Assembly (NCBI GenBank): GCA_041736305.1
Contig: JBGSTX010000124.1
Coordinates: forward strand, 1 to 41,969
Direction: 5' to 3'
Origin: Oligoflexus sp.
Lineage (GTDB): Bacteria > Bdellovibrionota_B > Oligoflexia > Oligoflexales > Oligoflexaceae
Length of the DNA: 41,969 bases
The notes under the pieces were generated by a model. It ran no database searches. It worked only from the letters and a program-made list of their open reading frames with translations, and was not told the origin of the DNA. Both the position numbers and the translations under genes were made by a program. This document shows, piece after piece, positions 2,243-10,397 of the stretch. Each line of letters starts with the position of its first letter. The first letter of the stretch is position 1.

Positions 2243-2614
2243 CTATAGCAAGCGAAAGGCCCAGCGGAAAAAGGCCTGCACCAGAGTCAGCATGATGGCT
2301 CCTACGATAGCCCCCAGCCAGCTTACCCGAAACCCCGATACAAGCGCCGCTGTCAGCTTCAGCATAGCCCCATTTAAGACCAGCCAAAAGATGCCTAAAG
2401 TCACCATGGTAAGTGGTAAAGTAAGGACCGTAAGCAGAGGCAAGAGAAGAGCGTTGACCAAGGCGAGGAGGAGCGCTGCGACCAAAGCTGTACCGAAGCC
2501 ATCGATGATCATCCCGGGGATGAGCCGGGAGGTGACGATGAGAGCTGCGGCGTTGATAAGCCAGGTCACGAGGCCTTGTATCAGGTAAATTTCTTGCTGA
2601 TTGCGTATAGGCAT
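2243..2614 (-). CDS. YvlD/DUF360-type 4-TM membrane protein (phage holin family annotation)
   Basis: WLINAAAL..ALVNALLLPLLTVLTLPLTMVTLGIFWLVLNG pattern; four hydrophobic segments; GAGGAG RBS before ATG 2614. Confidence 0.85.
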   Translation of the reverse strand: MPIRNQQEIYLIQGLVTWLINAAALIVTSRLIPGMIIDGFGTALVAALLLALVNALLLPLLTVLTLPLTMVTLGIFWLVLNGAMLKLTAALVSGFRVSWLGAIVGAIMLTLVQAFFRWAFRLL

Positions 2615-2703
2615 CGATACTGCTCCTCTCGCCAAGAACCATGCATCAGTTTACCGCATTGTGGGTTCAGCGAGCGAGAAGAGAGAAGATGAAGGGAAAA
2701 AAC

Positions 2704-5584: not shown

Positions 5585-5814
5585 AACCTCCCAAAAAACC
5601 CACTAAGGCTGAGCTATTCTACTGAAAAAATCTAAACTCGACCACTAATCGCAGGAGGCTTTTCTTTTATGCGAAAAAAATAACATTTACAAGTTTGAAG
5701 GATATAACCACAATCGGCCTGAGTTAGGGACTTGACTGCTCCAAAAAAAGCGTTTCGCCCACGCTGCAGTTGGTCCCCCAAATAAATTCATTCTGGTCAT
5801 CAAAGGGGATCACC

Positions 5815-7419
5815 ATGACATGGAAATGGCCGCGCATTGCCTTATTTTGCCTTCTCACCTGTTTTAACCACGGATGTGGCACACCTTCGACGGAAATGAC
5901 CACCTTACAATCTGACGATGATAACTATTCAATTCAAACTTTTCGATTTAAGAGTTTTGATGGTGCCGAACTCGCTGCCAAGATTTTTCAACCCAAGCCC
6001 GGTCTCTTCTCAGGCCCAAGACCTACCGTAATTTTCGCCAATTCCTGGGGTCTTAGCGAGTCGGAATACGACGGCCCGGCCCGACGCCTAGCAAAACTTG
6101 GTTATATTGCTCTAAGCTATGCAACGCGTGGCTTCAGTACGTCCGACGACGAGGTGAACGTCGGCGGTTCCAGCGACATACGTGATGTTAGTGCCTTAGT
6201 TGATTGGCTTGAAGATAACACTGAAGCTGATATTCAGAATCTTGCCATGGGTGGACTCTCCTATGGCGCCGGCATCGCGCTCCTAGCTGCTGCCCAAGAA
6301 CCGCGCCTCAAAACAGTGTTCGCCATTAGTGGTTGGGGAAATCTAGAGCAGGCTCTGTATGGGCAAGACACTATGCGAAGTACCTGGACCAAGCTTTTGG
6401 TGGGCTCGGGCCAGTTAGTAGGTCGCATAGGACAGGAAGTTCGTGAAAATCTCATGCGACTGCGGCGAAATGTAGATGTAGATAAAGTTCGGGCATGGGC
6501 GGCTGAACGCTCACCGATCACCTATATCGATCAAATAAATGCGCGTCAGGTGCCTATTTTCCTTGCGAACAGCTATCAGGACAACCTCTTTCCGCCCAAT
6601 CAGATGCGTAGCTTCTATGAGAAATTAAGCGGACCTAAAGTTTTCTATTTAGATCGTGGGATTCACGCAAGCTCGGCCTTTCCTGGAAACTTTGGTTTGC
6701 CGAACGATATTTGGGATGAAACAATTCGTTGGTTAGACTATTGGCTTAGGGATATAAATACTGGCGTGGCCAATAAAGCTCCCATTAATTTCCGTATCGG
6801 TAAGCAGTCGGAGCTCTACGGAACCTTTCCTGCCATGTATGACAAAAAAGTCGATCTCATTCTCAAACCGCTCAACGAGAACTCGAATAAAAACGACAAG
6901 TCCGAGGCTGAGATCGCAGCCAGCTTAGCTATTTCGGGTGGTTTGGACTCCGGAGCCACCAGTGGTGCTCCGCTTTTAGGCGAAAGCTTAGAAGGAATAT
7001 TCGGCCAGGCAATCAAGAAACATATCAAGCGGATTGATATGCGTTATGCGGCGGTCTACGAGAGCCCTGTCTTGAAAAATGGGGGGCGAATACGTGGATC
7101 GCCCAAAGTTACGCTCTATCTAGACCCACATCCTTCTCCCCTGCAGTTAGTAGCCTACCTTTATGACGTAGATACTAAGGGGGTTGGAACCTTAGTGTGT
7201 CATGGGGTCTTCAGTAGGCGTGAAGGTCAGAACGATGCGAGTAAAGTCGAACTTGATCTGGCTATTGCGGCCTACACGGTTGCGAAGGGACATAAGCTGG
7301 TCGTCGCTATGGATACTCTCGACCCACTGTATGAAAATCCCAGCAGTAACCAGTACAGACTGTCTCTAAAACGTGCAGACCCTGAAGCGACGTCTATCGA
7401 GATTCCACTCCTGCCTTAA
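5815..7419 (+). CDS. CocE/NonD (S15) family alpha/beta hydrolase, probable lipoprotein
   Basis: SYATRGFSTS, nucleophile motif GLSYGAG, C-terminal GSPKV..LVAYLYDVD (PepX_C-like); hydrophobic N-terminus with Cys. Confidence 0.85.
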   Translation: MTWKWPRIALFCLLTCFNHGCGTPSTEMTTLQSDDDNYSIQTFRFKSFDGAELAAKIFQPKPGLFSGPRPTVIFANSWGLSESEYDGPARRLAKLGYIALSYATRGFSTSDDEVNVGGSSDIRDVSALVDWLEDNTEADIQNLAMGGLSYGAGIALLAAAQEPRLKTVFAISGWGNLEQALYGQDTMRSTWTKLLVGSGQLVGRIGQEVRENLMRLRRNVDVDKVRAWAAERSPITYIDQINARQVPIFLANSYQDNLFPPNQMRSFYEKLSGPKVFYLDRGIHASSAFPGNFGLPNDIWDETIRWLDYWLRDINTGVANKAPINFRIGKQSELYGTFPAMYDKKVDLILKPLNENSNKNDKSEAEIAASLAISGGLDSGATSGAPLLGESLEGIFGQAIKKHIKRIDMRYAAVYESPVLKNGGRIRGSPKVTLYLDPHPSPLQLVAYLYDVDTKGVGTLVCHGVFSRREGQNDASKVELDLAIAAYTVAKGHKLVVAMDTLDPLYENPSSNQYRLSLKRADPEATSIEIPLLP

Positions 7420-7429
7420 AAGGTCTTTC

Positions 7430-7453
7430 CGCTGTGTGCCTTGGCACACAGCG
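7430..7453. promoter_or_regulatory. Perfect inverted repeat: terminator hairpin or enhancer-binding site
   Basis: cgctgtgtgcc-tt-ggcacacagcg; no U tract; contains TGT-N10-ACA; 80-100 bp upstream of a sigma54 motif. Confidence 0.45.
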
Positions 7454-7497
7454 TTCACGCCGGTTATTTTCGCTTCGCATTACCACTACGCCAAAAT

Positions 7498-7523
7498 AAA
7501 CAAGGACGAGCGGATCCTTGTTT
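7498..7523. terminator. Hairpin, possible bidirectional terminator
   Basis: aaacaagga-N8-tccttgttt flanked by A/T-rich sequence, between convergent genes. Confidence 0.45.
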
Positions 7524-7530
7524 TGAAAAA

Positions 7531-7546
7531 CGGCACCTCTTTTGCA
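7531..7546 (+). promoter_or_regulatory. Putative sigma54 (-24/-12) promoter
   Basis: CGGCACCTCTTTTGCA matches YGGCAC-N5-TTGCW with exact GG-N10-GC spacing. Confidence 0.6.
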
Positions 7547-7555
7547 GATATAAGA

Positions 7556-7735
7556 GCAGAGGGCGCAATAGCCCAGCCTCGAAGGAAGGGGTCCTGTGAA
7601 CTAGTCCGTTGTGTGATCTTGGATGTCTTACCCAATATCTTCCGTAATCCAACCACACAATTTCCGCCTAAGAAACCTCACAGCATGCAGCGGACTGGCA
7701 AACCCCATTTCTTTCTTCTTCGACTTCTGCCTCTT
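7556..7735 (+). ncRNA. Candidate structured non-coding RNA, about 180 nt, family not recognised
   Basis: Six nested complementary segments starting at the predicted sigma54 start site; no convincing ORF. Confidence 0.4.
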
Positions 7736-7753
7736 GCTTCTCTCTCAGATATG

Positions 7754-8506
7754 CTACCAGACATACCCTACATATAGACTAATGCCGTAATCCACTTCCC
7801 AAGCTTCCGCCTTAAGATTTTGTTCATTATTGAGACGTCGCAGTTCTCCGCCGGCCATTGAAAACTCACCTTTGGAATCAACCTTAGATGCCGAAAAAGG
7901 CATATAAAGATTCAGCCAGTCCAAGCCCGTTGTCCATGATCCGAACTGCCACTGGTTACCCATAGATAGTGATAGAAGGAACTGGTCGGTTGAACCCTTG
8001 TAGCTAAAAAGCTCATCTTCCGGACCACCCATATTCACCATTTCTTTGTCCTTGACCCGCAACTGGCTCCAACCGGTAGCAATCGCCATAAAGAGCGAGT
8101 TACCCATGAAAAATTTGCCTTGGATCAATAAGGTATCAATCTCCATCTCATCGAAATTTGCAAGATTCTTTGCGCTGAATCTCGCAAATCTTGCTTCGAG
8201 CAGTTTGTTCTCATCCTGATGAATACCAACTCGAAGATCGAGACCTAAGCCCTTGCGATAGCCAGTTCCAATTTGCACGGAACCGGCGTTGGTGATGCGT
8301 TCAGTTGCACTTCGATCATTATCAGAAGAATTCTCTGACGAATCTTCGAGCTCGTTGTCCGATTCATCGATGTCCGCGTCAGTACCACTTTCCTCTTTGG
8401 GTTTTGGCTGAGAACCTGGCACGGAGGCCTCTGCTGCGAAAGCAGCCGAATGTAGGGAGAGACAGCTGATAAAGGCCTGAAGGAGAGGTTTCCATCCTTG
8501 ACGCAT
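7754..8506 (-). CDS. Putative outer-membrane beta-barrel protein
   Basis: Signal peptide, acidic linker, alternating beta strands, C-terminal YGISLYVGYVW beta-signal; GAGGA RBS before ATG 8506. Confidence 0.7.
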   Translation of the reverse strand: MRQGWKPLLQAFISCLSLHSAAFAAEASVPGSQPKPKEESGTDADIDESDNELEDSSENSSDNDRSATERITNAGSVQIGTGYRKGLGLDLRVGIHQDENKLLEARFARFSAKNLANFDEMEIDTLLIQGKFFMGNSLFMAIATGWSQLRVKDKEMVNMGGPEDELFSYKGSTDQFLLSLSMGNQWQFGSWTTGLDWLNLYMPFSASKVDSKGEFSMAGGELRRLNNEQNLKAEAWEVDYGISLYVGYVW

Positions 8507-8703
8507 CGACCATGTTCCTCTTGTTGAAAGGCATTGTTTGCGTATTGTGACAAGCCAAAGGCCAGATGACAATGTTTTTAACAAGTCACGTCGTGAAATC
8601 CCCCTTCTGCAGAAGCGTGCCTCAGTATGCGAACAGGGGGGAGGGCATTAATTTAATGCGAAGTGCTAGACGCTTTCAGCTGAGAGCGGACCAGGAGATA
8701 GGC

Positions 8704-9560: not shown

Positions 9561-10397
9561 ATGCAAAAGGATACCGAAGCTTTAAAAAAAGACCTACTCG
9601 CTATTGAAGGCTCACTGGAACAAGGCCGTTCGCAGGCCCTCCAGGAAGGTGCTGATGTGATCAAAGCGATCGTCAAAGGTCTCGACGAGGGTCACCTTCG
9701 AGTGTGTAGCTTCGACAAGGGTCAATGGACAACTCATGCCTGGGTGAAGACCGCGATCCTTATGTATTTCCGCCTCATGGAAATGGAAGCCTACGAAGTG
9801 GGTCCGTTCGTTTACTATGACAAAATCCCTCTCAAGCGTAATTACCAAGATTTAAAGGTGCGGGTCGTTCCTCCCGCGACAGCTCGCTTCGGCAGTTTTA
9901 TGGAGCCAGGCGTCGTACTCATGCCTTCCTATGTAAATATCGGGGCTTTTGTTGGCAAAAACACGATGGTCGACACCTGGGCCACGGTTGGGTCCTGTGC
10001 TCAGATTGGGGCTAATGTTCATCTCTCAGGTGGGGTGGGAATCGGTGGAGTCCTCGAACCCGCTCATGCTAAGCCTGTCATCGTTGGCTCGGGATCCTTT
10101 CTCGGCTCACGCTCTATCGTCGTCGAAGGCGTAGAAATAGGCGAAGAGGCTGTGTTAGCGGCAAATGTGACTCTCACGGCCTCAACCCCCATCATCGACA
10201 CGCGCGACGGCAAGTGGGTGGAAAGCAAAGGTAGCATCCCACCCCGCGCGGTTGTCGTTCCCGGTACCAAGGAAAAAGTGGTTGCAGGTGGTAAGATGCA
10301 CACAGCCTGCGCCTATATCATAGGCAATCGCAAAGCTTCCACGGATCTCAAAACTTCTCTCAACGAAGTCCTGAGGGAATTTGCGGTATCGGTCTAG
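9561..10397 (+). CDS. dapD: Tetrahydrodipicolinate N-succinyltransferase
   Basis: WVKTAILMYF, DKIPLK, RVVPPATARFG, LMPSYVNIGA, MVDTWATVGSCAQIG, HLSGGVGIGGVLEP. Confidence 0.97.
   Translation: MQKDTEALKKDLLAIEGSLEQGRSQALQEGADVIKAIVKGLDEGHLRVCSFDKGQWTTHAWVKTAILMYFRLMEMEAYEVGPFVYYDKIPLKRNYQDLKVRVVPPATARFGSFMEPGVVLMPSYVNIGAFVGKNTMVDTWATVGSCAQIGANVHLSGGVGIGGVLEPAHAKPVIVGSGSFLGSRSIVVEGVEIGEEAVLAANVTLTASTPIIDTRDGKWVESKGSIPPRAVVVPGTKEKVVAGGKMHTACAYIIGNRKASTDLKTSLNEVLREFAVSV

Follow-up and report, generated by a model that had tools for sequence, protein, structure and literature searches.

The window analyzed here is a 41,969-nucleotide (nt) stretch of Oligoflexus sp. DNA (contig JBGSTX010000124.1, positions 1 to 41,969), in which a gap at 7420-7753 is flanked by two convergent genes: an S15-family X-Pro dipeptidyl-peptidase gene on the plus strand and an open reading frame (ORF) of 276 amino acids (aa) on the minus strand. 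Within this gap lies a sigma-54 type promoter, which is followed on the plus strand by a predicted structured RNA (Table 1). We favor, with moderate confidence, the reading that 7531-7720 on the plus strand is a gene for a structured, sigma-54-dependent small RNA (sRNA) that acts in trans; its narrower core, that a real non-coding RNA gene stands behind the sigma-54 promoter, we hold to be likely on comparative grounds. This reading is favored because the promoter core is conserved, the long stem covaries, no ORF is conserved and the block bears a footprint of purifying selection. The initial annotation of this DNA had proposed a novel sigma54-dependent sRNA here; we retain an unannotated, structured, plus-strand RNA that is absent from Rfam, and depart from that proposal in the length of the RNA and in most of its helices.

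Table 1. Features of the gap and its flanking genes, with the changes in the variant contig X2 (window positions)
Feature	Positions	Strand	Details
Sigma-54 type -24/-12 promoter CGGCACCTCTTTTGCA	7531..7546	plus	GG 7532-33, GC 7544-45, 10 nt between; TTGCA 7542-46
Predicted RNA, ~160 nt	7557..7716	plus	ends uncertain by several nt
P0 hairpin GGGC-GCAATA-GCCC	7561..7574	plus	7561-7564/7571-7574; in minimum-free-energy (MFE) fold; 83% of cells paired
P1 5' arm: GGGGT 7588-7592 and purine extension GAAGGAA 7581-7587	7581..7592	plus	MFE pairing with 7702-7715
P1 3' arm: ACCCC 7702-7706 and U-rich tail ATTTCTTTCTTCTT 7707-7720	7702..7720	plus	candidate non-canonical terminator
P2 5' arm CTAGTCCGTTGTGTG	7601..7615	plus	15-base-pair (bp) stem with 7684-7698
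P2 3' arm CATGCAGCGGACTGG	7684..7698	plus	pairs with 7601-7615
Loop inside P2, 68 nt, pyrimidine-rich (TCTTGG, CTTACCC, CTTCC, AATCCAACC)	7616..7683	plus	sequence conserved in relatives
X2, promoter and RNA (190 nt)	7531-7720		1 substitution (7565, P0 loop)
X2, upstream non-coding (111 nt)	7420-7530		6 substitutions
X2, downstream non-coding (33 nt)	7721-7753		substitutions 7721, 7736, 7743 and 4-nt insertion behind 7744
S15-family X-Pro dipeptidyl-peptidase gene	5770-7419	plus	PF02129 (1.4e-26), PF08530
276-aa ORF	7754-8584	minus	no Pfam family
Palindrome CGCTGTGTGCC-TT-GGCACACAGCG	7430..7453	plus	perfect; 11 nt past peptidase stop codon
Second hairpin AAACAAGGA-N8-TCCTTGTTT	7498..7524	plus	inverted repeat running into T-run, directly 5' of promoter

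The promoter was recovered exactly where a near-consensus -24/-12 motif had first been noted, and the ORF map agrees that it points into a gap between convergent genes. The sigma-54 consensus is TGGCAC-N5-TTGCW, and across all nine aligned elements, which fall into the two types described below, the core GGC-N7-TTGCA is invariant while its flanks vary. Genome-wide matches to the consensus with at most one mismatch occur at 58.6 per megabase (Mb) in intergenic DNA (47 matches) versus 14.5 per Mb within ORFs (61 matches), a split that depends on crude ORF calls; the window's own promoter is missing from the intergenic list, as a spurious 134-aa ORF masks it in these calls. The intergenic matches mostly stand 30-120 nt upstream of a gene start and, because of their fourfold density over coding DNA, we estimate roughly that about three-quarters of them are real. 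The genome codes for rpoN (a PF04552 match of 220.7 bits on contig C114) and displays 23 matches to PF00158, 15 of which score at least 168 bits and point to about 15 enhancer-binding proteins, none of the PF00158 matches of this genome-wide profile search being on the window's contig. A scan for sigma-70 promoters returned none at a place suitable for the RNA.

Two further observations concern such promoters. Eight intergenic sigma-54 matches in the window's genome (G000) have no same-strand ORF start within 1 kilobase by the crude gene calls, namely C128:4264(+), C186:11927(+), C219:25089(+), C232:18987(-), C59:8551(-), C79:34464(+), C98:36190(-) and C143:317(-); these may be artefacts of the gene calling or else additional promoters without a protein gene, perhaps serving other sRNAs. 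In a genome of another genus of the same family (G014, locus L039), a sigma-54-like motif, TGGCCTGGGACTTGCT, occupies the equivalent spot after the peptidase orthologue. Downstream of it come AGGAGG and a small ORF whose product would be a His-rich, lipoprotein-like peptide of about 54 aa; at the same place, G018 (L034) has a comparable small ORF for a basic lipoprotein but no clear GG-N10-GC. The position of the promoter behind the peptidase gene may thus be older than the RNA.

We place the RNA start at about 7557, some 11 nt past the -12 C, as the geometry of the promoter predicts; the end is deduced from where the conserved block stops and from the U-rich tail. A 3' end near 7707-7720 is more likely than one at 7730-7740 and, because the constrained block ends at about 7720, we set the RNA at approximately 7557-7716, in place of the 180 nt originally suggested. 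The segment 7556-7740 folds with z = -2.23 on the plus strand, where it beats dinucleotide shuffles (4 of 200 were as good), versus z = -0.50 on the minus strand (57 of 200 as good); for 7557-7720, the values are -2.22 in sense versus 0.08 in antisense. The sense fold reaches z of -2.2 to -6.0 in every one of the nine elements, and the antisense fold is weaker in eight of them.

The helices were assessed as the share of paired cells in a MAFFT alignment of the four window-type sequences (those of the window, G009, L174 and L172) that had not been fitted to any structure. The mainstay of the fold is the long stem P2, with 98.3% of cells paired against 34-44% in slid controls; three of its pairs are changed on both sides, each from U-A to C-G, and four on one side, by exchange of wobble and Watson-Crick pairs. 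Four of its pairs in the window are G-U, which on the minus strand would be A-C mismatches, and the plus strand is therefore the folded one. P1 pairs in 75% of cells in the window's register (7588-7592/7702-7706), and its counterparts are either G-run/C-run pairings or shifted ones (CAAAGGGG/CCCCUUUG in L174, GGGA/UCCC in G009 and AAGGC/GCCUU in L172). Counterpart hairpins to P0 are found in L172, L174 and G009. The seven helices drawn in the initial annotation are all present as strings where it had put them, and two are supported, one is possible and four are not conserved. The supported ones are ctagtccg/cggactgg, which belongs to P2, and ggggt/acccc, kept as the G-run/C-run pairing of P1, while ttggat/atccaa is possible (83% of cells paired). 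The helix ttgtgtg/cacacaa falls away (71% paired; L174 has CATAAAT for the partner), with 7609-7615 pairing instead with 7684-7690 to extend the long stem; the supposed pseudoknot ctgtga/tcacag is paired in only 50% of cells; and the two outer stems need 7718-7730, a stretch that G009 and L174 lack, the stop codon of their convergent gene coming about 20 nt or less after the long stem. The best-conserved unpaired motifs (TCTTGG, CTTACC, CTTCC and AATCCAACC) are in the 68-nt loop, a putative target-binding region. P2 encloses 68 nt, unlike an intrinsic terminator, in which a short G+C-rich stem with a loop of 3-8 nt leads into a T-run, and the scan of 7000-8200 for intrinsic terminators yields none at the 3' end of the RNA, its sole site being at 8169-8188.

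An independent view of selection comes from X2, a contig from a different study that carries a 97%-identical variant of the locus, with 13 substitutions and one 4-nt insertion across 7350-7850 (Table 1). The block 7531-7720 differs from the 144 nt of non-coding flanks (9 substitutions and the indel) at Fisher p = 0.0028 and from the rest of 7350-7850 at p = 0.022, which shows it to be under stronger constraint than the neighboring intergenic DNA. Since the changes in X2 resume at 7721, the 3' edge of the constrained block falls at about 7720, just past ATTTCTTTCTTCTT. No ORF keeps its start, frame or length across the nine sequences, and the longest, a 134-aa ORF at 7373-7777, has no Pfam match. 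The 55-aa ORF from ATG 7623 and the minus-strand ORF 7464-7658, which had been named at the outset as products that might displace the RNA, are not conserved either, as L174 lacks the ATG of the former and has lost the start of the latter. Further, the window and G009 are put out of frame with each other by an 8-nt indel, and the one ATG shared by the second element type is replaced by ACG in L173, while in G005 a stop closes its frame after 7 codons.

Relatives of the element are beyond the reach of plain sequence search, as blastn with 7420-7760 against 60 relatives gives only two spurious matches of 32-36 nt, and we located homologues through the synteny of the flanking genes. In G009, another species of the same genus, the peptidase is 60% and the 276-aa protein 42% identical, the arrangement is likewise convergent and the gap has the same layout: a palindrome after the stop codon, CGGCAT-N5-TTGCA after 'CAAAAAC', 53 nt, and CTAGCCCGTTGCGCG pairing with GCGCAACGGGCTGG. 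A metagenome scan by alignment of the peptidase C-terminus supplied 42 further loci, on which R1, a covariance model of promoter and RNA built from six sequences, has three matches at E<=1, all of them immediately behind the peptidase gene. The window-type element is borne by L174, whose peptidase is 84% identical, and by L172 (57%), the second type by L173. The search for homologues and covariation thus furnishes three syntenic relatives of the window's element, among which P2 covaries. The element lies directly 3' of the S15 peptidase gene in the same orientation in all nine cases. R1 finds a single copy in each of six genomes, out of 22 in the family and 95 in the order; the six positive genomes all belong to one genus and all contributed to the training of R1. 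A degenerate pattern scan of contigs gave more than 120 chance matches in unrelated taxa.

Five species of the same genus with larger genomes (G008, G004, G002, G006 and G007; loci L027-L031) have a peptidase orthologue 48-50% identical to that of the window, with a conserved convergent gene immediately behind it. No RNA element was found at the peptidase locus of these five, which suggests that the locus was lost or replaced there.

Rfam 15, whose families include Pxr (for which there is an Rfam model), Qrr, GlmY/GlmZ, 6S, SRP and riboswitches, has no match at gathering scores in the whole window, none at E<=10 in 7300-7900 and none at E<=1 in five related loci, as the novelty claimed for the RNA at the outset would lead one to expect. 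The same search bears out the earlier remark that no 6S, SRP, ribozyme or riboswitch signature is recognizable; the '6S-like' size had been remarked on as well, and there is nothing 6S-like about the RNA. Readings as a 6S-like RNA, a ribozyme or a riboswitch accordingly have no Rfam support. That the family is undescribed rests on Rfam 15 rather than on the literature, where the full-text search was not specific to the lineage. We regard it as a probable new sRNA family of a known kind, confined, within the genomes and loci searched, to a part of a single uncultured genus.

A second element type follows the peptidase orthologue in five sequences (G003, G010, G005, G011 and L173). It comprises TTTGGCCTYC-N3-TTGCAATAG, a 5' hairpin, a 10-bp long-range stem (GTCTGCTGYG/CRCAGCAGAC) whose loop holds CCTTTCCCCCAGCTTCC, an inner hairpin and a 3' hairpin, with T-runs of 7-8 past the RNA in three of the five. 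Only about 25 nt, without a terminator, lie between the peptidase stop codon and its promoter. The two types share position, orientation and the core GGC-N7-TTGCA, and have promoter-stem distances of 55 versus 47 nt by our count; 2 of the 11 positions of their stem arms are different, and the differences compensate each other (AGUCCGUUGUG/…CAGCGGACU vs AGUCUGCUGUG/…CAGCAGACA). In the pooled nine-sequence alignment, itself fitted by R1, every one of the 90 cells of the 10-bp core is paired, with four pairs changed on both sides, and none of 500 shuffles reached the covariation score; plain MAFFT alignments of six sequences recover the same pairs. We consider it probable but unproven that the second type is a homologue of the window type, and our verdict on the window rests on the four window-type sequences and the X2 strain.

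Among the alternatives, it is improbable that the hairpins are merely termination or 3'-end structures of the convergent peptidase and outer membrane protein (OMP)-like genes, with a sigma-54 motif that is non-functional or serves only antisense transcription or interference. The element does abut the convergent stop codon in G000, L174 and G009, 18-55 nt past the long stem, and, with no canonical terminator in the window type, transcription could run antisense into 7754-8584. However, the 68-90-nt loop of the stem is conserved in sequence, unlike that of a terminator, the G-U pairs tie the stem to the plus strand and the promoter core is invariant in all nine elements. Moreover, the peptidase gene already has separate terminator-like hairpins at 7430-7453 and 7498-7524, and the convergent OMP-like gene is lacking beside the window-type element of L172 and the second-type element of G003.

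We attach an equally low probability to a role in cis, whereby the element would be a 3' untranslated region of the peptidase gene controlling the stability of its mRNA, or an ancestral sigma-54-driven leader of the dapD region. Its constant place directly after the peptidase gene, the lack of a terminator between stop codon and promoter in the second type, and the presence of dapD about 430 nt downstream on the same strand in G003, and also nearby in the window (9561-10397), would fit this alternative. Against this, two minus-strand genes separate the element from dapD in the window, two hairpins separate it there from the peptidase gene, it has a conserved promoter of its own and T-runs of 7-8 come after the second-type RNA in three of five sequences. 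The gene downstream also varies, being OMP-like (minus) in G000, L174 and G009, an ATP-grasp gene (plus) in L172 and dapD (plus) in G003, which speaks against a leader or an antisense function bound to any single neighbor.

It is very unlikely that the stretch is conserved as DNA, for instance as regulator sites for the neighboring genes, with an incidental fold: four sequences and one close strain cannot fully separate selection on DNA from selection on RNA, yet compensatory and wobble-preserving changes in arms 70-90 nt apart are unexpected for protein-binding DNA, and folding differs between the strands. Still less credible is a small protein or dual-function RNA encoded by the 55-aa, 134-aa or 7464-7658 minus-strand ORF, for although all three exist in the window and the ATG 7623 frame is in register with a G009 ORF over about 12 codons with many third-position differences (alignment read by eye), the ORFs of the nine sequences all differ in where they start, how long they are and which frame they use.

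For the trans-acting sRNA that we prefer, we propose the following course of events. Sigma-54 RNA polymerase, activated by one of the approximately 15 enhancer-binding proteins, would start near 7557, and the transcript would end at the U-rich tract after P1 (about 7707-7720). The resulting RNA would consist of the 5' hairpin P0, the closing helix P1 and the stem P2 clamping the 68-nt pyrimidine-rich loop. It would act in trans without Hfq, for which the 92.7%-complete genome has no match, through pairing of its C/U-rich loop with the purine-rich ribosome-binding regions of target mRNAs, whose translation would be lowered. Taken alone, this trans-acting anti-Shine-Dalgarno mechanism is a tentative proposal, somewhat short of an even chance; the pairing step is its weakest part, suggested by the composition and conservation of the loop and by analogy with other sRNAs. 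Protein-sponge RNAs carry GGA or A-rich motifs, and such motifs are not enriched in the window RNA (read by eye). We rejected a reading as a CsrA sponge, as only three GGA occur in about 165 nt by eye, about chance level, though CsrA is present in the genome. More speculatively, and in our estimation rather doubtful as a whole, the family could be a genus-restricted, Hfq-independent riboregulator of unusual design that couples an environmental signal, sensed by one of about 15 enhancer-binding proteins, to translation. Its long clamp helix would display a pyrimidine-rich loop of 70-90 nt that either serves many mRNAs at once as an anti-Shine-Dalgarno decoy or soaks up a C/U-binding protein in the manner of a sponge. 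In that case, the two forms at the locus would have diverged beyond recognition by covariance models while keeping the promoter, position and clamp.

Several points weigh against the sRNA reading. The promoter has one mismatch to the consensus (C for T at -26), and GGCAC-N5-TTGC occurs 32 times in the 5.02-Mb genome vs about 38 occurrences expected from base counts, so the bare -24/-12 pattern is no commoner than chance and alone is not significant. Upstream activator sites typically lie about 80-150 bp upstream of sigma-54 promoters; TGT-N10-ACA palindromes are found 97-149 nt 5' of the -24 element in G000, G009 and L172, right after the peptidase stop codon, and no site common to both element types was found. 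These palindromes occupy the expected place of the peptidase terminator, and the post-stop palindrome is probably just that, yet it is spaced where activator sites also occur. A canonical intrinsic terminator is lacking in the window, L174 and G009 elements. The window type comprises four sequences and the close strain X2 only, and all three double-sided changes in P2 come from the single sequence G009. With default filters the promoter-less covariance models show no cross-match between the types: R2 (second type only, effective sequence number 1.23) scores 1.7 bits at the window's true place (E 0.59), and R3 (window type only) 2.1 bits at that of L032 (E 1.2). The covariation figures from the pooled alignment, which R1 had fitted, therefore receive no independent support from these tests. 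The transcript itself is predicted from sequence alone. Lastly, when the 68-nt loop, or a 38-nt portion of it, is scanned for targets among 4267 crudely called translation-start regions, it does no better than shuffles; the best real duplex has -33.6 kcal/mol vs -30.7 to -38.2 in eight shuffled seeds, start regions average -16.5 vs -15.3 kcal/mol for gene interiors and the neighboring genes rank at percentiles 0.08-0.98. The duplex-energy method builds unrealistically long duplexes, and we set the scan aside as uninformative. With these points included, we take the feature to be real and probably functional, as judged from the comparative evidence.

The closest in kind among known systems is Pxr of the myxobacteria, described as an intergenic sRNA of multiple stem-loops with an apparent sigma54 promoter upstream, in organisms where no Hfq homologue was detected, and whose gene adjoins that of the enhancer-binding protein nla19 (PMC5568312). 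The window RNA resembles it in its sigma-54 motif, its several stems and the lack of an Hfq match in its genome. It differs in having no Rfam match, in the lack of a PF00158 match on its contig, as opposed to pxr beside nla19, and in a long clamp helix around a 68-nt loop in place of three stem-loops that together span about 100 nt. Dependence on sigma-54 is also known for the sRNAs GlmY/GlmZ of Enterobacteriaceae, Qrr of Vibrio, CrcZ/CrcY of Pseudomonas and Azotobacter, and NrsZ of P. aeruginosa (PMC3045617, PMC10162802, PMC6292655, PMC4253122). They too are stand-alone genes behind a -24/-12 promoter, theirs being activated by a dedicated enhancer-binding protein, whereas the window RNA has no Rfam match and its genome no Hfq match. 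We set aside NcS25 of Burkholderia as a sigma-54 precedent, as its paper states that there is no sigma-54 motif upstream of ncS25. MicL in cutC and DapZ after dapB exemplify sRNA genes at the 3' end of a protein gene with a promoter of their own. The present elements are like them in that the promoter comes just past the stop codon of a conserved upstream gene (about 25 nt in the second type), but two hairpins intervene between gene and promoter in the window, and the sigma factor is another.

To our knowledge, sigma-54-dependent sRNAs are few and almost all come from cultured Proteobacteria and Myxococcus, and each one known to us sits at a key decision point, be it quorum sensing, envelope synthesis, carbon/nitrogen control or development. 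This way of regulating would be known from a wider range of bacteria if it extended to a new family, with a structure of its own, in a hot-spring lineage that is uncultured and has no detectable Hfq, and the RNA would open access to one branch of the organism's sigma-54 regulon. How fast an sRNA body evolves under a conserved promoter could usefully be studied on the two diverged forms that share a syntenic locus; were the riboregulator reading true, they would speak for very fast sRNA turnover under a fixed regulatory input. The finding, which is wholly computational, introduces no new principle.

In the surroundings of the element, the palindrome at 7430-7453 is most likely the terminator hairpin of the peptidase gene and lies outside the RNA. 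A near-identical palindrome, GCTGTGTGC-N2-5-GCACACAGC (TGT-N10-ACA), stands behind the stop codon of the peptidase gene in G000, G009 and L172, with positions of about 2603-2626 (minus) in L007 and 2423-2447 in L172; L174 has an unrelated canonical terminator at this spot, and in the X2 strain both loop bases of the palindrome are substituted. The hairpin at 7498-7524 is a possible insulating terminator. Downstream of the second type, L032, L033, L037, L038 and L173 share a conserved block, TGACAGRATACTGGAGGATACAGTG ... CATATGTCA, about 70-110 nt past the RNA and before dapD, for which a promoter or operator of dapD and some other element are candidates; alignment of the interval between the second-type RNA and dapD with the region upstream of dapD in the window revealed no usable similarity. 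The 276-aa protein displays a signal-peptide-like N-terminus, an acidic linker rich in Ser, Asp and Glu, and a C-terminus ending in ...GYVW. Its closest Atlas clusters are unnamed, and the closest named ones are OMP beta-barrel, OmpA-like and DUF3575 (at 0.94). It is probably a small outer-membrane beta-barrel, judging from these features, and has weak homologues in 25 of 41 related genomes.

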